DNA of 64,000 nt, taken from the NCBI GenBank assembly GCA_035535295.1, contig DATLQI010000038.1, positions 95,973 to 159,972 on the forward strand. Reading direction: 5' to 3'. Below, piece by piece: positions 21,422-64,000 of the stretch. Source of the DNA: Solirubrobacterales bacterium. Lineage in GTDB: Bacteria; Actinomycetota; Thermoleophilia; Solirubrobacterales; 70-9. The position numbers and the translations under genes were made by a program. The notes beneath the pieces are model-generated. The model was not told where the DNA came from. It ran no database searches and worked only from the letters and a program-made list of their open reading frames with translations. Positions within the stretch are counted from its first letter, which is position 1. Each line of letters begins with the position of its first letter.

Positions 21422-22425
21422 TCGAGCTGCCCCCGCCGCGGGGGCCGCTCAGCGAGCAGCTGTTCGAGGCGCTGGAAGGGCCGGCGCGCACCCGCCTCGC
21501 CTGCCCGGGCCTGGTCGAGCCGGACGACCCGCTGGCCGACGAGGACCTTCAGCTCGCCCTCTACGTCGCCTACGAGCTCCACTACACCGCGATCGCCGGC
21601 GTCGACGAGGCCTGGGAGTGGTCGCCCTCGCTGCTCTCCTTCCGCGGCGCCCTCGAGCGCCCTTTCGAAGAAGCGGTGGCGGAGCTGGTGGCGCCGGCCG
21701 AAGCGGCGGAGCTGGAGTCGGTCGGGGCCGCCCTGCAGGAGATCGTCGCCGAGGACCCAGGCCCGCCGCTCTCCCGCTACATGGAGACGCAGGGGACGCA
21801 GGAGCAGATGCTCGAGCACGTCGTCCACCGCTCCGCCTACCAGCTGAAGGAGGCCGATCCGCACTCCTGGGCGATCCCGCGCCTAACCCCGCGGCCGAAG
21901 GCGGCCCTGCTGGAGGTCCAGTTCGACGAGTACGGCGGCGGCAGCGCCGAGCGCATGCACTCGGCGCTGTTCGCGCAGACGATGGCCGGCCTCGGCCTCG
22001 ACCCGACCTACGGGCACTACCTCGACCGTTGGCCGGGGATCACGCTGGCGACGGTCAACCTGATCACCAACTTCGGCATGCACCGCCGCCGCCGCGGCGC
22101 CCTCGTCGGCCACCTCGCCGGCTTCGAGATGACCTCCTCGATCCCCAACCGCCGCTACGGCAACGCCCTGCGCCGGCTCGGGCACGGCCAGGAGGTGACG
22201 CACTTCTACGACGAGCACGTCGAGGCCGACGCCGTGCACGAGAACATCGCCGCCTGGGACCTGGCCGGCGGGCTCGCCGCCGAGGAGCCGGAGGTGGCCG
22301 CCGACATCCTCTTTGGCGCCCGGGCGCTGCTCCAGGTCGAGGCGCGCTGGGCGGGCCACCTGATGGACTCGTGGGAGCGGGGGGAGACGTCGCTGCGCTC
22401 GCCCCTGGTCCCCGTCGCCGCGTGA
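21406..22425 (+). CDS. iron-containing redox enzyme family protein (heme-oxygenase-like diiron fold)
   Basis: EVQFDEYGGG, GHLAGFEM and DEHVEADAVHE carboxylate/His motifs. 16-nt overlap with the CDGSH gene. Confidence 0.7.
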   Translation: MAGRLIELPPPRGPLSEQLFEALEGPARTRLACPGLVEPDDPLADEDLQLALYVAYELHYTAIAGVDEAWEWSPSLLSFRGALERPFEEAVAELVAPAEAAELESVGAALQEIVAEDPGPPLSRYMETQGTQEQMLEHVVHRSAYQLKEADPHSWAIPRLTPRPKAALLEVQFDEYGGGSAERMHSALFAQTMAGLGLDPTYGHYLDRWPGITLATVNLITNFGMHRRRRGALVGHLAGFEMTSSIPNRRYGNALRRLGHGQEVTHFYDEHVEADAVHENIAAWDLAGGLAAEEPEVAADILFGARALLQVEARWAGHLMDSWERGETSLRSPLVPVAA

Positions 22426-23462
22426 GCGCTCCGCTCGAGCTCAGCTACGTGGTGCCGGTGCGCTGGCGGGGCGGCGAGCAGCGGGAGGATCTGGCGGCCT
22501 ACCTGGCCGAGATCGCGCCTCATTGCGCCGAGGTGATCGTCGTCGACGGCTCCCCAGCCGAGGTTTTCGCCGCCAACGCCCAGGCGTGGGGCGGGCTCGT
22601 CACCCACGTGCCGCCGCTGGAGGACGAGCGCTGGCTGATGGGGAAAGTCTCCGGGGTGCGGACCGGCGTCCGCCTCGCCTCGCACGAGCGGGTCGTGATC
22701 GCCGACGACGACGTCCGCTACGAACTCGAGGCGCTGCGCCGGACGGCCGCCCTGCTCGACGCCCACGACCTGGTGCGGCCGCAGAACTACTTCAGCTCGC
22801 TGCCCTGGCACGCCCGCTGGGATACTGCCCGCACCCTGCTCAACCGCTGCCTCGGCCGCGACTACCCGGGGACGTTGGCGGTGCGGCGCTCGCGCCTGCT
22901 GGCGATGGGCCTCTACGACGGCGACGTCCTCTTCGAGAACCTGGAGCTGATCCGCACCGTCCGCGCCCACGGCGGCAGCGACGTCGCCCCGCTCGACCTC
23001 TACGTCGCCAGGGTGCCGCCCTCGTCGGAGCACTTCTGGGGCCAGCGTACCCGCCAGGCCTACGACGACTTCGCCCTGCCGCTGCGGATGGCGCTCTGGC
23101 TCGCGGTCGTTCCGCTGCTGGCGCTGGACTGGCGCCGGAGACATGCCGACGGGACGAAAGTACCCCTATATGGAGGGAAATCGTCCCATCGGCCTCGTAG
23201 TGGGCTGATGGCGGCTGCTCTCTCGGTTGCGATGGCGGAGGTGGGACGCCGGCGCGCTGGCGGCGCCGCCTACTTCCCGGCCTCCTCTTCCCTCTTGGCG
23301 CCGGTCTGGGTCCTCGAGCGCGGGGTCTGCGCCTGGCTCGCGGTCCTCCAGCGCCTGCGCTTCGGCGGCGTCCGCTACGGCGACTCGGTCATCCCCGTCG
23401 CCGCCCACTCCGAGCGACAGATCCGCCGCCGGCTCGCCAGGCCGACGCCGGTCGGGAGCTAG
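22422..23462 (+). CDS. family 2 glycosyltransferase with C-terminal membrane segment; carries an in-frame 49-bp palindromic repeat
   Basis: GTG at 22422 overlaps the upstream stop (GTGA). SYVVPV...VIVVDGS...ADDD pattern. Confidence 0.75.
   Translation: MSAPLELSYVVPVRWRGGEQREDLAAYLAEIAPHCAEVIVVDGSPAEVFAANAQAWGGLVTHVPPLEDERWLMGKVSGVRTGVRLASHERVVIADDDVRYELEALRRTAALLDAHDLVRPQNYFSSLPWHARWDTARTLLNRCLGRDYPGTLAVRRSRLLAMGLYDGDVLFENLELIRTVRAHGGSDVAPLDLYVARVPPSSEHFWGQRTRQAYDDFALPLRMALWLAVVPLLALDWRRRHADGTKVPLYGGKSSHRPRSGLMAAALSVAMAEVGRRRAGGAAYFPASSSLLAPVWVLERGVCAWLAVLQRLRFGGVRYGDSVIPVAAHSERQIRRRLARPTPVGS
23145..23193 (+). repeat. 49-bp palindromic repeat, copy 1 (inside the GT2 coding sequence)
   Basis: 47/49 identical to 63622..63670. 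12-bp arms GCCGACGGGACG / CGTCCCATCGGC (one mismatch). 25-nt AT-richer loop GAAAGTACCCCTATATGGAGGGAAAT. Confidence 0.85.
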
Positions 23463-25349: not shown

Positions 25350-26300
25350 ATGCCAGACAACGATCCCCAGACCCAGCTCGTCAAGTACCTGACCGACGTC
25401 CACTCGATCGAGGAACAGGCGCGAGTGCAGATGGAACGCGCCCCGAAGCTCGTCGAGGGCGCCTTCGCCGAGGCCTTCCAGCGCCACCTCGGTGAGACCG
25501 AATCCCAGGAGCAGCGCGTGCGCGAGCGCCTCGAGGCGCACGACGCCTCGCCCTCGAAGATCAAGGACGTCGCCGGCGCGGCCGGCGGCTTCGGGATGGT
25601 CCTCTTCGCCCGCTCCCAGCCCGACACGCCGGGCAAGCTGGCGATGCACGCCTTCTCCTACGAGCACATGGAGGTCGCCGCCTACGAGCTGCTGGGGATC
25701 GCCGCCCGCGAAGCCGGCGACGAGGAGACCGCTGCGATGGCGGCGACGATCGCCGACGAGGAGCGCGAGATGGCCGGCCGGATCGCCGCCAGCTGGGACG
25801 AAGCGGTCGAGCAGGCGCTGGCCCGGGTCGAACCCGACGACCTCGGCGACACGCTGAACACCTACCTCGCCGACGTCCACGCGCTCGAGGGTCAGTCGAA
25901 GAAGCTGCTGGAGAAAAGCCGCGAGCTCGACGTTCCGGAAGCGCTCCGCTCCGCCCTCGACCACCACCTGCGGGAGACCGAAGGCCACCTGGAGAAAATC
26001 GAGCGCCGGCTCGACGACCGCGGCGCCACCCCCTCGGCGATCAAGGACGCGATGCTCCGCCTCGGCGCCCTCAACTGGGGCGCCTTCTTCGCCGCCCAGC
26101 CCGACACCCCCGCCAAGCTCGCTGGCTTCGCCTACGCGGTCGAGAACCTCGAGGTTGCCGCCTACGAGCTGCTTTTCCGCGTCGCCCGCCGCGCCGGCGA
26201 CGGGGAGACCGTCACCCTCGCCGAATCGATCCTCGGCGAGGAGCAGGCGGCGGCGAAATCGGTCGCCGACCAATGGCCGGTCTCGATGTCGGTTGCCTGA
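25350..26300 (+). CDS. tandem DUF892 (YciE/YciF ferritin-like) domain protein
   Basis: Two repeats of the LVKYL-DVHSIE / LNTYLADVHALE ... H-ETE-Q/H ... EVAAYELL pattern. Confidence 0.8.
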   Translation: MPDNDPQTQLVKYLTDVHSIEEQARVQMERAPKLVEGAFAEAFQRHLGETESQEQRVRERLEAHDASPSKIKDVAGAAGGFGMVLFARSQPDTPGKLAMHAFSYEHMEVAAYELLGIAAREAGDEETAAMAATIADEEREMAGRIAASWDEAVEQALARVEPDDLGDTLNTYLADVHALEGQSKKLLEKSRELDVPEALRSALDHHLRETEGHLEKIERRLDDRGATPSAIKDAMLRLGALNWGAFFAAQPDTPAKLAGFAYAVENLEVAAYELLFRVARRAGDGETVTLAESILGEEQAAAKSVADQWPVSMSVA

Positions 26301-26302
26301 AT

Positions 26303-26339
26303 CTGTCTCAGTCCTCCCTATGCGGGGTCTGAGACAGAG
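26303..26339. terminator. hairpin between convergent genes (10-bp arms TCTGTCTCAG/CTGAGACAGA)
   Basis: Perfect 10-bp stem and a 17-nt loop with an inner CCC/GGG pairing. No U-tract. Confidence 0.4.
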
Positions 26340-26345
26340 TCGTCG

Positions 26346-26870
26346 TTAGGGGACGCCCTGGCTGCTGGCGGCGGTAGCGCTCGGCAACGCCCGCTGGGCG
26401 GCGGCGAGGTGGAGGTCTTCGACCTGCTGGCCCTGGCGGTCGGCGCGCTCGGCGAGGGCGTGGAAGTCGATCCCGTCGAGGCGCTCGCCGAAGCTCTGCT
26501 CGAGCCCGTTCCAGAGCTGCATCTTGCCGCCGATCCCGGAGGCGAGGATCTCCAGCTCGAGGACCCGGCTGAGCGGCGAGTAGCCGCGCCACTGCCCGTT
26601 CAGCTTCAGCCGCCCGAGCCGCTCGCCGACGACGGCAAGTGCTGGTTTGAAGCCCTTACGGTCGACGCCGAGCCGTTCCATCACCCGGATCAGCGTCTCC
26701 CGGTCCTCTTCGATCTCGGCGCAGATCCGCGCCAGCGGCTCGCCGAACTCGGGGTCGCCCCGGTTGCTCGACCGCAGGCGGCGGGCCAGCTCGACGCCGA
26801 GCGCGGCCCCCGCCAGGTGGTCGTTCAGGTAGATGGCCAGGAGCCGATCCGGGTCCGCGCTCTGGGCCAT
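26346..26870 (-). CDS. helical hypothetical protein
   Basis: ATG at 26870 (MAQSADPDRLLAIYLNDHLAG), 8 nt after the upstream stop. Confidence 0.55.
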   Translation of the reverse strand: MAQSADPDRLLAIYLNDHLAGAALGVELARRLRSSNRGDPEFGEPLARICAEIEEDRETLIRVMERLGVDRKGFKPALAVVGERLGRLKLNGQWRGYSPLSRVLELEILASGIGGKMQLWNGLEQSFGERLDGIDFHALAERADRQGQQVEDLHLAAAQRALPSATAASSQGVP

Positions 26871-37627: not shown

Positions 37628-38587
37628 ATGTCTCCCTCTTCCGCCGAGACCGCAAAAACCATCCTTGAAGGAGGGTTTTTGCGGTCTCGCGATGATGATC
37701 GCTGGTTGGCGGGGCTGGCCGAGCGGCAATACGGGGTGGTGGGCCGGTGGCAGTTGCTGGAGGCGGGGTGGAGCAGTGGGGCGATTGAGAAGCGCACCCG
37801 GAGTGGGCGGCTTCACCCCTTGTACGCGGGCGTGTACCGCGTGGGACACGGGGTGATCTCGCGCCAGGGCGGCTGGATGGCAGCGCTGCTTGCTACTGGG
37901 CCCGACGCGGTCCTCAGCCACTGGTCGGCTGCGGCTCTCTGGATGATCCGGCCGAACTCGCGGTCGGTCATCGACGTCACTACGCCTCACAAGAGCAGAA
38001 CCTGGGACGGGATCAGACGACACCACAAAGCGCTGCCGGCCGATGAGGTCACGGTGGAGGAGGGGCTACCGGTGACCGGTCCTTGCCGAACCGCCTTCGA
38101 TCTCGCGGCCACGGAGCCACTCGACCTGGTCGAGAACCTGATCCGGGAGATGGAATTCCGCCAGTTGTGGGACCGGCTCTCGCTCCCGGACTTGATCGAG
38201 CGTTATCCGGGGCGCCGGGGAGTCCGGAAGCTTCGACTCGCCCTGGAACGCCTCGAGGAAGATCCAGCCGGCCGCAAGCGCTCGCCCCTCGAGGAGCGCT
38301 TCAGCCCGTTCCTGCGCCGCCACCGCCTGTCCCTGCCGCGCTACAACGACTGGATCCTTCTCCCGAACGGCAAGCGCTACCAAGTCGACTGCCACTGGCC
38401 GGGCACCAACCAGATCGTCGAGCTGGACGGCTGGCAGGGCCACTCCACCAAGAGCGCCTTTCGCGACGACCGAGCTCGCGACCGCCGTCTTACCGCCGCC
38501 GGCTACACCGTCACCCACATCACCTGGAACCAGCTCGACGACGAACCGGAGGCAATCGCCGCCGACCTGCGGGCGCTGCTGCGCTAG
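37628..38587 (+). CDS. AbiEi-like N-terminal domain + DUF559 endonuclease-like domain protein
   Basis: GVVGRWQLLEAG...SHWSAAALW N-terminal pattern. C-terminal D...GY-V-HITW pattern. Confidence 0.7.
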   Translation: MSPSSAETAKTILEGGFLRSRDDDRWLAGLAERQYGVVGRWQLLEAGWSSGAIEKRTRSGRLHPLYAGVYRVGHGVISRQGGWMAALLATGPDAVLSHWSAAALWMIRPNSRSVIDVTTPHKSRTWDGIRRHHKALPADEVTVEEGLPVTGPCRTAFDLAATEPLDLVENLIREMEFRQLWDRLSLPDLIERYPGRRGVRKLRLALERLEEDPAGRKRSPLEERFSPFLRRHRLSLPRYNDWILLPNGKRYQVDCHWPGTNQIVELDGWQGHSTKSAFRDDRARDRRLTAAGYTVTHITWNQLDDEPEAIAADLRALLR

Positions 38588-45378: not shown

Positions 45379-45882
45379 ATGGCCACGGCCAACGACGTCG
45401 AGATCCGCGCGGCGACCGAGGAGGACGTCCAGGTCCTCTACGACCTGATCCTCGAGCTCGCCTCCTACGAGAAACTCGGCGACAAGGTCGCCGGGACCGC
45501 CGAGGCGCTGCACCGCTCCCTCTTCGAGCGTCAGGCGGCCGAGGCGCTGCTGCTGGAGACGAGCGACGGCGAAGCCGTCGGCTACGCGATCTTCTTCACC
45601 AACTTCTCCACCTTCGAGTGCCGGCCGGGCATCTGGCTCGAGGACGTCTACGTTCGCCCCGAGCACCGCCGCGGCGGCATCGGCCTGGCGGTGATGGAGC
45701 GCCTGGCGAGGATTGCCGAGGAGCGCGAGTACGCCCGCCTCGAATGGTGCGCCCTGGAGTGGAACGAGCCAGCCCTCGAGTTCTACGCCAAGCTCGGCGC
45801 CCGCCGCCTCGACGACTGGCGCATGCTGCGGCTCGAAGAGGACGGGATCAAGCGATTGGCTGCGGGGGAGGGGCATGGGTGA
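45379..45882 (+). CDS. GNAT N-acetyltransferase
   Basis: YVRPEHRRGGIG acetyl-CoA loop. The last four codons lie in a 29-bp inverted repeat arm. Confidence 0.85.
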   Translation: MATANDVEIRAATEEDVQVLYDLILELASYEKLGDKVAGTAEALHRSLFERQAAEALLLETSDGEAVGYAIFFTNFSTFECRPGIWLEDVYVRPEHRRGGIGLAVMERLARIAEEREYARLEWCALEWNEPALEFYAKLGARRLDDWRMLRLEEDGIKRLAAGEGHG

Positions 45883-45948
45883 CCCACCCCAGACACATCT
45901 CGCTATGGCTCGATGTTGAGTGTCTGGGGAGGGTCACCCATGCCCCTC
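45868..45948. repeat. 81-bp palindrome: 29-bp arms (28/29) spanning the stops of two convergent genes
   Basis: Left arm GAGGGGCATGGGTGACCCACCCCAGACAC. The reverse complement of the right arm is GAGGGGCATGGGTGACCCTCCCCAGACAC. 23-nt AT-richer loop. Both genes end in EGHG-stop inside the arms. Confidence 0.85.
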
Positions 45949-62699: not shown

Positions 62700-63614
62700 A
62701 TGAACTTCTTGCTGGGCCACGTAGGCGCCACGTTCGCCCCCGTCGAGGTCCTGCCGCTGCTGGTCGCGGCCGTCCTCTACGCCAAGCGCTCGATCACGCT
62801 GGCCGAGCGGGGCCGGCCGGTGCCGCTCTGGCGCCAGCTCTGCTTCGCCGGCGGGCTGCTGACGATGGCGATCGCCTTGGTTTCGCCGGTGGCCCACGTC
62901 GCCGAGGAGCTGGTGATCGCCCACATGGTCGAGCACCTGCTGCTGGGCGACGTCGCCACCCTGCTCCTGGTCCTCGGGCTGACCGGCCCGCTGCTGCAGC
63001 CGATCCTGGCGATTCCGGCCTTCGACCGGCTGCGGATCCTCGCCCACCCGCTCGTCGCCTTCCCGCTCTGGGCGCTCAACTTCTACTTCTGGCACATCCC
63101 CGCCCTCTACGACGCCGCTTACGGCGGCGCCGCGGTGCACGCGCTCGAGCACATGAGCTTCGTCTTCTTCGGCTGCCTGATGTGGATGCCGATCTTCGGG
63201 CCGCTGCCGAAGCCGAGCTGGTTCAACGCCGGCTGGAAGGTCGCCTACGTCGTTGCCGTCCGCTTCGCCGGGGCGATCCTCGGCAACGTCCTGATGTGGT
63301 CGGGGACGGTCCTCTACCCGAAGTACGCGGCCGGCGAGGCCTACTGGAACATCTCCCCGCTGGCCGACCAGAGCACCGCCGGCGTGGTGATGATGGTCGA
63401 GGGCACCTTCCTCGGCCTCGGCCTGCTCGCCTGGGTCTTCTTCGAAGTCTCCCGCGAAGGGATCGAGAAGCAGCGCCTGCTGGACCTGGCGACGGAGCGG
63501 GGGGTCGAGCTGGACGAGGCGCGGGCGCAGCGGGCGGTCGCGGCCGGCCAAGGAGCGCGGCTGGAGCGGCAACTGACCGGCGCCGGGGGGGACCGCGACG
63601 ACCGTCCAGGCTGA
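62700..63614 (+). CDS. ctaG: cytochrome c oxidase assembly factor CtaG (Caa3_CtaG type)
   Basis: Multi-TM protein with HMVEHLLL and FYFWHIPALYD motifs. Confidence 0.8.
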   Translation: MNFLLGHVGATFAPVEVLPLLVAAVLYAKRSITLAERGRPVPLWRQLCFAGGLLTMAIALVSPVAHVAEELVIAHMVEHLLLGDVATLLLVLGLTGPLLQPILAIPAFDRLRILAHPLVAFPLWALNFYFWHIPALYDAAYGGAAVHALEHMSFVFFGCLMWMPIFGPLPKPSWFNAGWKVAYVVAVRFAGAILGNVLMWSGTVLYPKYAAGEAYWNISPLADQSTAGVVMMVEGTFLGLGLLAWVFFEVSREGIEKQRLLDLATERGVELDEARAQRAVAAGQGARLERQLTGAGGDRDDRPG

Positions 63615-63621
63615 AAACCCC

Positions 63622-63670
63622 GCCGACGGGACGGAAGTACCCCTATATGGAGGGAAATCGTCCCGTCGGC
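63622..63670 (+). repeat. 49-bp palindromic repeat, copy 2 (8 nt after the ctaG stop)
   Basis: Perfect 12-bp arms GCCGACGGGACG / CGTCCCGTCGGC. Loop GAAGTACCCCTATATGGAGGGAAAT. Confidence 0.85.
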
Positions 63671-63678
63671 AGCGGGGG

Positions 63679-64000
63679 CTGCTGGCGGCGCTGGTCTTCG
63701 TGGTCGGCGCTTCCAGCCTTGGGGTGGAGATCGCGGCGGCGCGGCTGCTCGCTCCTTACTTCGGGGCCTCGACGATCGTCTGGGCGAACACGATCGGGGT
63801 CGTCCTCGTTGCCCTCTCGGTTGGCTACTGGTTCGGCGGCCGCTACGCCGACCGCCACCCACACCTGCGCGGGCTCTGCCTGCTGGTGCTGGCGGCGGCG
63901 GTCCTGATCGCGCTGGTGCCGTTCGCGGCGCGGCCCTTCCTCGGCTTTTCGGTCGACGCCTTCGACACCGTCTCGGTCGGCGGCTTCGCCGGCTCGCTCT
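63679..64000 (+). CDS. spermidine-synthase-like multi-TM protein, 3' end beyond window; start codon unresolved
   Basis: Frame 1 reads LLAALVFVVGASSLGVEIAAARLLAPYFGASTIVWANTIGVVL. The frame is open from 63577, but the first canonical-type start candidates are CTG at 63679 and GTG at 63700. Confidence 0.6.
   Translation, partial: MLAALVFVVGASSLGVEIAAARLLAPYFGASTIVWANTIGVVLVALSVGYWFGGRYADRHPHLRGLCLLVLAAAVLIALVPFAARPFLGFSVDAFDTVSVGGFAGSL

Follow-up and report, generated by a model that had tools for sequence, protein, structure and literature searches.

A 49-nt palindromic unit occurs twice in a 64,000-nt stretch of DNA from a Solirubrobacterales bacterium (contig DATLQI010000038.1, positions 95,973 to 159,972 of the forward strand; hereafter, the window). 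We consider it probable that this unit is a mobile, non-coding palindromic repeat, comparable to repetitive extragenic palindromic (REP) sequences and to miniature elements, that is confined to a sub-clade of the Solirubrobacterales and that has spread as DNA by a process catalysed in trans. It belongs to a dispersed family of palindromic repeats, termed here type A, which shows a REP-like placement; its copies recur in frame within genes, a 48-nt insertion is found in a family 2 glycosyltransferase (GT2) gene, and the occupied sites turn over. Hairpin families are consistently paired, in a clade-matched manner, with DUF559 genes in cassettes that behave as insertions or deletions.

Two copies of a 49-nt hairpin in the window

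Copy 1 (23145–23193, + strand) is located in frame within a gene coding for a GT2-like glycosyltransferase of 346 aa (22422–23462, + strand, GTG start). Its frame 0 reads ADGTKVPLYGGKSSHR, and the predicted peptide of the element in GT2 is ADGTKVPLYGGK. Copy 2 (63622–63670, + strand) starts 8 nt past the stop codon of ctaG, with 7 nt in between. As stated in a preliminary description of this DNA, both copies lie on the same strand and are identical at 47 of 49 positions; the differences correspond to element positions 13 and 43 (A/G in both cases). When the window was searched allowing up to three mismatches, exactly these two copies were obtained, none being expected from 100 shuffles, which bears out the earlier claim that such a match exceeds chance. 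Copies 1 and 2 were likewise the only ones retrieved with an nhmmer profile of 58 family members.

The structure prediction proposed in the preliminary description shows that both copies fold (−26.1 kcal/mol for copy 1 and −31.0 kcal/mol for copy 2; z about −6), and that they do so on both strands. The fold consists of a 13-bp G+C-rich stem, with a single C·A mismatch in copy 1, and a 23-nt loop with a small helix inside it. The G+C content of the loop is 40%, against 69% in the window; the hairpin with an AT-richer loop and a nested pairing that had been described is recovered.

The earlier description also placed copy 1 within the GT2 frame without a stop codon. The G+C content at third codon positions (GC3) of the GT2 gene is 0.94 upstream and 0.90 downstream of copy 1, in the same frame, and since this coding signature continues in one frame across the element, copy 1 is truly read in frame. 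A stop-free read-through is by itself unremarkable, because the element is open in five of its six frames and adds a net length divisible by three. The GT2 protein of the window matches at 100% a recorded protein from a Solirubrobacterales metagenome-assembled genome (MAG). The Pfam family Glycos_transf_2 falls below the cut-off on the window protein, and PF00535 is recorded on its orthologues. Copy 1 occupies a loop between two hydrophobic segments, and in the DNA of relatives the gene is seen in the order zf-CDGSH / Haem_oxygenas_2 / GT2 / STAS.

A dispersed repeat family of the Solirubrobacterales

Further copies, a search for which had been proposed beforehand, are numerous. The exact 20-mer of the loop is present in unrelated contexts at 51 loci in 15 species-level MAGs, with 14 matches in one of them; all these MAGs are assigned to the Solirubrobacterales, except one that is labelled only Actinomycetota. 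A profile search yielded 63 copies of type A in about 1 Mb of related DNA (the 15 MAGs and several metagenome contigs; individual loci are given with an L number). When the copies were oriented and stacked (the 51 loci and the two in the window), similarity started and stopped exactly at the 49-nt unit. The weak similarity formerly suggested to continue for about 16 nt falls outside the element, the flanks of the 53 copies being unrelated: after both window copies, this stretch codes for the beginning of a hydrophobic helix (GLMAAA and GLLAAL), and right flanks in the family are merely G-rich.

Mean identity between type A copies is 95%. Their arms of 12–13 bp, GCCGACGGGACG(A) and (T)CGTCCCGTCGGC, form terminal inverted repeats, and the pairing of the stem is a property of the type A consensus. 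Additional copies, with either one or two loop changes or a second type of loop (AAAACGGKCCTATA.AGACCGRAAT), occur nearby within the same 8-kb loci (L020, L021, L024, L028 and L045), at about five per 330 kb of flanking DNA. The loop 20-mer gave 0 matches in the viral contigs scanned, so that type A is not phage-borne. No gathering-level match to Rfam 15 was obtained anywhere in the window, a permissive E-value giving only noise of the miRNA-hairpin type (14–17 bits), and no account of palindromic repeats of the Solirubrobacterales was found in the open-access literature.

An apical motif resembling C-TATA-G (CCTATATGG, GCCTATAGCC, GCTATAGCC, CCTATATCG) is common to hairpins with unrelated stems, namely the type A loop and the hairpins at L013:4293, L006:6686, L099:2512, L088:1601, L032:5817, L131:8154 and window position 26299. 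This hints at a recognition feature shared across hairpin families.

Placement of type A copies and translation within genes

We assigned the coding frames of the flanking genes from GC3 and open frames. About 16 copies lie 3–40 nt past the stop codon of a gene on the + strand, that is, the strand of the element, and about 17 lie 0–20 nt from the stop codon of a gene on the opposite strand; in many cases the distance to a stop codon is 10 nt or less. Intergenic sites include 9 between convergent genes and 13 + 7 between co-directional ones, and none between divergent genes. The element fills the convergent gap completely in L007, L013, L018, L024, L027, L044 and L051. In six copies, the upstream gene runs through the element and stops 18–26 nt later. 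Roughly a fifth of the independent sites (about 20%) are inside genes.

Type A hairpins share with intrinsic terminators a GC-rich hairpin; a T-run is absent, T being the rarest or a minor base from +1 to +12. The left (upstream) flanks are C-rich and the right (downstream) flanks G-rich, with a complementarity no better than chance. A location of the copies at the apex of larger pre-existing palindromes was considered and rejected, flank complementarity being about that of shuffles (P about 0.8). At L028:5583–6325, a gene for a LuxR-type response regulator is bracketed by two type A copies 700 nt apart, one of subfamily 2 and one of the main type.

At least ten independent type A sites are read through in frame. 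In frame 0, the element is found in GT2 (window, L010), in a P-type ATPase just after the DKTGT motif (L006), in a GH15-like protein (L015/L031), and in the N-termini of a DUF559 protein (L021/L045) and of a spermidine-synthase-like protein. Frame 1 is used in the linker of a GATase/Anth_synt_I (anthranilate synthase) fusion (L002), in a membrane protein (L025/L034/L039) and in GT87 (L037/L046), and frame 2 in two different membrane proteins (L042, L050). The element is used in each of the three sense frames and lies for the most part outside genes, which speaks against the possibility considered in the preliminary description that the segment is a conserved protein motif. Pfam domains resume on both sides of the in-gene copies, which mostly occupy loops between hydrophobic helices or inter-domain linkers. 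With a net gain of 48 nt (16 codons), five of six frames open and insertion into loops or linkers, these in-gene copies are tolerated. The translated copies (window 23145, L002, L006, L010, L015, L025, L037, L042, L050 and L021) are all in sense orientation, even though two of the three antisense frames are open too; the corresponding probability is 0.6^10, about 0.006.

The GT2 loop is a hot spot for hairpin elements

To place the insertion in GT2, we used 120 orthologues with 74–88% identity, together with DNA from six relatives and 80 metagenome loci. The loop is hypervariable among the 120 orthologues. A peptide of the form ADGTK..KSSRR is present in 41 of them, and the remaining ones carry RFSKPVVDKSASRR-type inserts, AFGNRIRLSPQPGVAKIR-type inserts or none. 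Almost all orthologues with less than about 66% identity have a segment of 96 nt, a length taken as the ancestral state; before insertion, the loop is short and arginine-rich. In type A carriers it measures 144 nt, a net gain of 48 nt (16 codons). The segment of about 17 aa is thus lineage-specific, as the earlier proposal of a selfish insertion anticipated, and in close relatives the insert is absent or replaced by others. Some close relatives have a loop of 81 nt, below the ancestral 96, which suggests that the insert was lost along with some flanking sequence. Residues encoded by the arms (ADGTK, KSSRR) are retained at 80–100% and those encoded by the loop at 34–76%, the figures for the arms being inflated by the pattern used for selection. 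In GT2, three loci (L056, L069 and L061) retain the type A stems perfectly and differ in the loop.

The second insert of GT2 is also a hairpin (GGCGCTTT..AACC-NNN-GGTT..AAAGCGCC). Since similar hairpins exist outside GT2 (L008, L025, L026), it represents a separate dispersed family, type B; its interpretation as a decayed type A element was rejected for the same reason. The third insert (L053) is another, imperfect hairpin, type C, of which no second copy was found in the related DNA examined. On a GT2 tree built leaving the loop out, the insert states require 33 parsimony changes, against 58 when shuffled. Insert states are therefore partly inherited, yet they have been gained, lost or swapped many times. 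As type A, type A with a diverged loop, type B, a third hairpin or no insert at all occur at this one place, the GT2 loop is a hot spot for hairpin elements. Separately, a hairpin of about 48 nt with a 20-bp stem (GCCGCACGGCTGGAGTCCTGGAAGGGAG.CAGGACTCCAGCCGTGCGGC) occupies a conserved syntenic site 2–3 kb upstream of GT2 in relatives (L058:2662, L059:2056, L062:3083, L064:3029, L067:3100, L071:2642); it was not seen in the window.

Turnover at the ctaG junction

Copy 2 lies 7 nt after the end of the Caa3_CtaG gene (62700–63614, + strand; PF09678, E = 3e-51), at, or inside, the 5′ end of a gene for a spermidine-synthase-like membrane protein. The open reading frame (ORF) of the latter (63577–64000, + strand) extends off the window end and reads through copy 2 in frame 0, the frame in which copy 1 is read. 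Its first canonical start in the window is GTG 63700, the other possibility being a non-canonical CTG. In L139, the gene caller starts a spermidine-synthase-like ORF of 517 aa at a GTG upstream of the element. This GTG corresponds to GGG in the window (window 63577–63700 compared with L139:1690–1800), which leaves the start of the gene, and hence the translation of copy 2, ambiguous.

L139 (equal to L146; CtaG 94% identical) carries the element at the same place, with identical stems and six changed loop bases (AAAACGTCCCTATATGGACCGAAAT). The flanks differ from those of the window by about 7%, and 9 nt are absent after the element. Point mutation is an unlikely source of the loop difference, which agrees better with replacement or conversion by a different member of the family. 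Because the stems are identical and six loop bases are swapped, occupied sites turn over. The spermidine-synthase-like gene is absent from L138 and L140, where the order is ctaG, a 39-aa ORF and tig. We considered whether this gene is bracketed by two elements, and rejected it, there being no hairpin at the right junction.

Hairpin families accompany DUF559 nuclease genes

In L021 and, in another species, in L045, two type A copies 950 nt apart bracket one gene in direct orientation and touch its ends. The copies of L021 (1430–1478 and 2394–2442) are whole hairpins, not half-ends. The product of the bracketed gene contains AbiEi_4, DUF559 and MTES_1575 REase domains (Pfam). By tblastn we detected nine AbiEi_4+DUF559 genes in the related DNA, and a strong 5′ hairpin is present at 6 of 6 independent loci, whereas comparable hairpins have a background frequency of 196 in 998 kb (about 0.03 for each 100 nt). 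In the about 1 Mb of DNA covered, AbiEi_4+DUF559 is the only gene family repeatedly flanked by hairpins.

The hairpins of these loci belong to different families. Type D (CCCGAACTGCATCA..) is found on both sides of the DUF559 gene in L069, L076 and L080, the two copies being mutually inverted. Type B precedes the gene in L026, with a second copy within the reading frame, and type E′ is found at the DUF559 locus of L032. Type E (CGAGACCGCAAAAACC..GGTTTTTGCGGTCTCG), which is of the same class as type A and of a different family, is present at the 5′ end only in the window (37645–37689, + strand), L141 and L142. In the window, the type E hairpin has a 21-bp stem and is located directly 5′ of an AbiEi_4+DUF559 (Vsr-like nuclease) gene (37706–38587, + strand) or within its first codons, since an alternative start, ATG 37628, reads through it. 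As with type A, hairpins of types B, D and E/E′ also exist as solo copies elsewhere. Compensatory changes are seen in the inner stem of type E among the window, L141 and L142 (AAAAACC/GGTTTTT vs AAAATTC/GAATTTT).

Clades of the DUF559 paralogues match the hairpin families, with a protein identity of 64–81% within clades and 33–45% between them, and the nuclease motif D..VExD(G/S)..H is conserved in all paralogues compared. A leader of about 45 nt (CGGCAC..CGCACCACNCGYGCGC..CACGCTC) is common to the cassettes of clades A, D and E, whose proteins are only about 36–40% identical. The type D cassette constitutes a 1.2-kb insertion between convergent genes and is missing at 15 or more syntenic loci. 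These include window positions 26290–26347, a short convergent gap with a small terminator-like hairpin (26299–26341), which is the empty counterpart of the site occupied in L069, L076 and L080. In L067, half of the 3′ type D hairpin is left where sister lineages hold the full cassette. The paralogue group of the window occurs in three different neighbourhoods (window, L141 and L142) and keeps its hairpin in all of them.

Hairpins also affect the coding frames of these genes. The N-termini called for more than 100 relatives have the form M-P-AETAK-(variable)-FLRSR, in which the arms are kept and the loop varies. At L026:893–933, a type B hairpin lies in a degenerate DUF559 frame and adds about 13 residues in the tblastn alignment, so that the nuclease genes themselves take in-frame hairpin insertions. 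Outside this order, a tblastn search with the L021 paralogue as query (1e-3) led to Tsukamurella tyrosinosolvens (Mycobacteriales), in which an annotated DUF559 gene is located between two 41-nt palindromes; solo copies of this palindrome are present in further replicon records, and one of these copies fills the gap between two convergent genes. The window DUF559 protein gave no match when searched by tblastn against plasmids (1e-8).

To our knowledge, DUF559 is a huge family the function of which is not known; it comprises 21,512 clusters at 50% identity with E ≤ 0.001. Searched by sequence against the PDB, the DUF559 protein gave no match. The predicted structure of the window protein has a confidence score (pLDDT) of 71.5 overall and of 85–94 over most of the end domains. 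The best fold match of the modelled C-terminus is the catalytic domain of the Vsr-like homing endonuclease I-Bth0305I (PDB 3r3p; TM score 0.72–0.74 on the target); NGO0050 and the nuclease domains of AbaSI/PvuRts1I also match the C-terminus, and AbiEi matches the N-terminus. In the open-access literature, we found no paper linking DUF559 to repeats.

Relation to known repeat systems

Like REP sequences and REPINs with their REP-associated tyrosine transposases (RAYTs), type A consists of short GC-rich palindromes in many dispersed copies, with several families per genome. They are located mostly downstream of genes, between convergent or unidirectional ones, with occasional in-frame intragenic copies. 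The hairpin/DUF559 loci recall REP/RAYT loci in that a single gene is flanked by cognate palindromes and that gene clade and repeat family co-vary. Type A differs in having a stem of 12–13 bp and a loop of 23–25 nt, REPs being units of 20–40 nt with loops of 2–20 nt; in occurring as singlets, not as inverted doublets; and in its host phylum, the Actinomycetota. Moreover, the gene flanked by type A codes for AbiEi_4 + DUF559 (PD-(D/E)xK, Vsr-like), and that flanked by REPs for a Y1 HUH transposase. REPs have been defined by an unpaired GTAG or CGTC tag at one end, a stem of 5–13 bp and a loop of 2–20 nt (PMC3733652). The type A alignment has no unpaired GTAG or CGTC tag at either end, CGTC being found only within the 3′ arm. 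Type A hence shares with REPs sensu stricto the many-copy palindrome and a predominantly extragenic placement, and lacks the tag and the short loop. Published REP superfamilies do include intragenic in-frame copies (PMC3733652), and the REP survey reports CGTC-type REPs without a dedicated transposase, with Actinobacteria not mentioned. Actinobacteria are likewise not mentioned in the RAYT surveys that we checked.

The preliminary description had compared the unit to the Rickettsia palindromic elements (RPEs) and had asked whether it is a selfish element of that kind. The analogy, a functional one, holds, as RPEs are palindromic selfish repeats, many of which lie in frame in functional genes and are translated as part of surface loops or linkers, and a likeness to REPs can be added; membership in either family does not hold. 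RPEs are of about 100–150 bp, belong to alpha-proteobacterial endosymbionts and are probably unrelated in sequence, whereas type A units are of 48–49 nt, come from the Solirubrobacterales and are intragenic in about a fifth of cases. Type A is thus set apart by description from the 100–150-bp Rickettsia family, with which it shares in-frame insertion into functional genes.

Miniature transposable elements with inverted repeats (MITEs) found in frame within bacterial genes include ERIC, QMITE1 of Coxiella and the MITEs of Anabaena (reviewed in PMC10969869). Type A resembles MITEs in being non-autonomous, in its inverted ends that form a hairpin, and in open frames that permit translational fusions. 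It differs in lacking a target-site duplication and in its size, under the usual 70–300 bp, and no parent insertion sequence (IS) with type A ends was seen in the related DNA examined. Inside genes, type A behaves as RPEs and some REPs and MITEs do (PMC10969869; PMC3733652); the phylum is new, and the unit is smaller.

The L021/L045 arrangement also recalls IS200/IS605 elements, with one gene between two similar hairpins on the same strand and no target-site duplication, and solo type A copies recall hairpin-only derivatives scattered in a genome. The cassettes differ from IS200/IS605 in that the gene is not of the HUH Y1 type (PF01797) and tnpB is lacking; in some of them, the flanking hairpins are inverted (type D, Tsukamurella) or 5′ only (type E). 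As modelled, the window DUF559 protein resembles I-Bth0305I, a nuclease of a selfish gene with the Vsr-like 'EDxHD' fold. I-Bth0305I is intron-encoded in a phage; in contrast, the DUF559 gene stands by itself, carries a fusion to an AbiEi-type winged helix and occurs together with palindromes. Finally, REP sequences are known to be hot spots where other mobile elements insert (PMC1525189). What they have in common with the GT2 loop and the ctaG junction is that one site is repeatedly taken by different small elements. The difference is that at REP hot spots the incoming elements are IS elements, and the GT2 hot spot is a coding loop where the incoming elements are hairpin repeats.

Proposed origin and spread of the repeats

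If type A is a mobile repeat, it would spread as DNA, through hairpin-dependent cut-and-copy or gene conversion catalysed in trans. The best candidate for the enzyme would be the AbiEi_4+DUF559 (Vsr-like PD-(D/E)xK) nuclease, acting in the manner of a RAYT or of a homing endonuclease, because clade-matched hairpins flank or precede its genes, in one case type A on both sides. It is quite possible, if short of probable, that Actinomycetota possess a RAYT-independent, REP-like system in which hairpin families are tied to AbiEi_4+DUF559 clades and the nuclease mobilises solo copies or homes into them. The gene would then share its cassette with the conserved leader, the cognate hairpin and, often, another hairpin. 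Solo copies, in spreading, would reach the ends of genes and, in frame, loops of proteins, that of the window GT2 among them. Any role at the level of the host, as a 3′-end or terminator hairpin, would be secondary.

Several observations weigh against this interpretation. MAGs and metagenome contigs are the source of all data. Type A sites have no clear target motif, nor, at any boundary offset, a target-site duplication of 3 nt or more. For no solo type A copy was a filled/empty pair with near-identical flanks found, which would have shown recent transposition directly. Among 58 copies, stem covariation is not significant, as 92.5% of the stem pairs can form, compared with 91.8% after shuffling, and 17 of 43 distinct type A sequences have a mismatch between columns 10 and 40; the hairpin may hence matter only as a property of the master sequence. 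Compensatory changes noticed by eye in L016, L004 and L019 were also considered as proof of selection on the stem, and were discarded for lack of significant covariation. The retention of arm residues in GT2 hints at a constraint on stem or peptide that a purely selfish element does not need. With respect to the enzyme, the DNA in which a RAYT or other transposase could be seen was limited to about 1 Mb. The link between type A and DUF559 is one locus, seen in two MAGs (L021 and L045), and type A bracketing is not exclusive to DUF559 genes, the LuxR-type gene of L028 being bracketed as well. Paralogues of type E have only the 5′ hairpin, and this could be no more than a structure that regulates the gene.

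Could the unit be instead a functional structured-RNA motif, that is, a selected, non-mobile cis-element of the host serving as terminator, 3′-end stabiliser or translation brake? The strong hairpins, the clustering of copies right after stop codons and in convergent gaps but never between divergent genes, and the exclusively sense orientation within ORFs would agree with it. So would the persistence of copies at orthologous sites across species while flanks diverge (L025/L034/L039, L012/L022 and others) and of GT2 stems while loops drift. Yet copies take both orientations relative to neighbouring genes and three frames within ORFs, no T-run follows them, presence/absence and replacement occur at one site, and there is no Rfam match. 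An identity of 95% together with no significant compensatory change points to copying from a master sequence rather than to independently maintained structures. We therefore regard such a motif as unlikely, although some type A copies may have been co-opted by the host. It is slightly more doubtful that solo hairpins are footprints left by recombination after loss of a hairpin–DUF559 gene–hairpin cassette, as solo long terminal repeats are. Type A and type B copies do flank or accompany the gene in direct orientation, and L067 keeps half a 3′ type D hairpin where its sisters hold the cassette. However, the ten or more independent solo copies in intact genes, the P-type ATPase gene included, would each imply a survived disruption of 1 kb; 63 type A copies contrast with a single cassette locus; and the type D flanks are inverted, so that recombination between them inverts the gene and does not delete it.

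An equally doubtful alternative is that type A, as a REP or MITE of the classical kind, owes its movement to a conventional transposase (a RAYT/Y1 HUH enzyme or that of an IS with the same inverted ends) encoded outside the DNA examined, DUF559 being incidental. Architecture and placement are REP-like, REPs with in-frame copies have been published (PMC3733652), and the related DNA covered is about 1 Mb, not whole genomes. This has to be set against the missing GTAG/CGTC tag, a loop far longer than in described REPs (PMC3733652) and the missing target-site duplication, as well as against the lack of Y1 next to any copy in that DNA and of Actinobacteria in the RAYT surveys checked. An incidental role is also at odds with the clade-matched hairpins that accompany DUF559 genes at 6 of 6 loci and in Tsukamurella. 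As to a conserved GT2 protein motif, a chance match of DNA or an assembly artefact, we give them practically no credit. The recurrence of ADGTK..KSSRR in 41 of 120 orthologues is what would favour a protein motif, but no match is expected by chance, the same DNA is present in 15 independent MAG assemblies, and the element also resides in unrelated genes, frames and intergenic sites. Family copies, their unrelated contexts and the 96-nt loops of distant orthologues, which lack the segment, exclude the protein-motif and chance readings. A mobile palindromic repeat spread by an enzyme acting in trans is the explanation that we retain as probable.

Other repeats in the window and in related DNA

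An 81-nt hairpin with a 29-bp stem lies at window positions 45868–45948. Its 38-nt apex (CAGACACATCTCGCTATGGCTCGATGTTGAGTGTCTGG) is also present at L002:303–385 with a wholly different outer stem. This hairpin could represent a further repeat family or else a structured RNA. Two more hairpin families recur in related DNA, CGTGGTTCCTTTYGCAC..GTGCGAAAGGAACCACG and GGGATGGGGATCGGGCACCCTCC..GGAGGGTGCCCGATCCCCATCCC (L014:5714, L020:6394, L048:3742, L059:1717; L008:5068, L014:3421, L020:4090). The longest direct repeat of the window is of 136 nt, with 73% identity between copies 1.1 kb apart (487–622 and 1616–1751).

Significance

Small palindromic repeats that are translated within proteins are textbook oddities of Rickettsia and a few proteobacteria. 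The same process is now seen in a high-GC order of soil actinobacteria, with a compact unit of 16 codons. Taken by itself, type A is a new family of a known sort; the hot spot and the association with a nuclease add more. A coding loop in which hairpin families replace one another is a natural experiment on the tolerance of proteins to peptide inserts, the hosts of which are mostly membrane glycosyltransferases and transporters. For genome annotation, it is relevant that these hairpins shift predicted starts and lengthen ORFs, as in the spermidine-synthase-like gene and in the N-termini of DUF559 proteins. Lastly, the pairing of DUF559 genes and hairpins in the Solirubrobacterales and in Tsukamurella provides a concrete enzyme hypothesis that can be tested at the bench.

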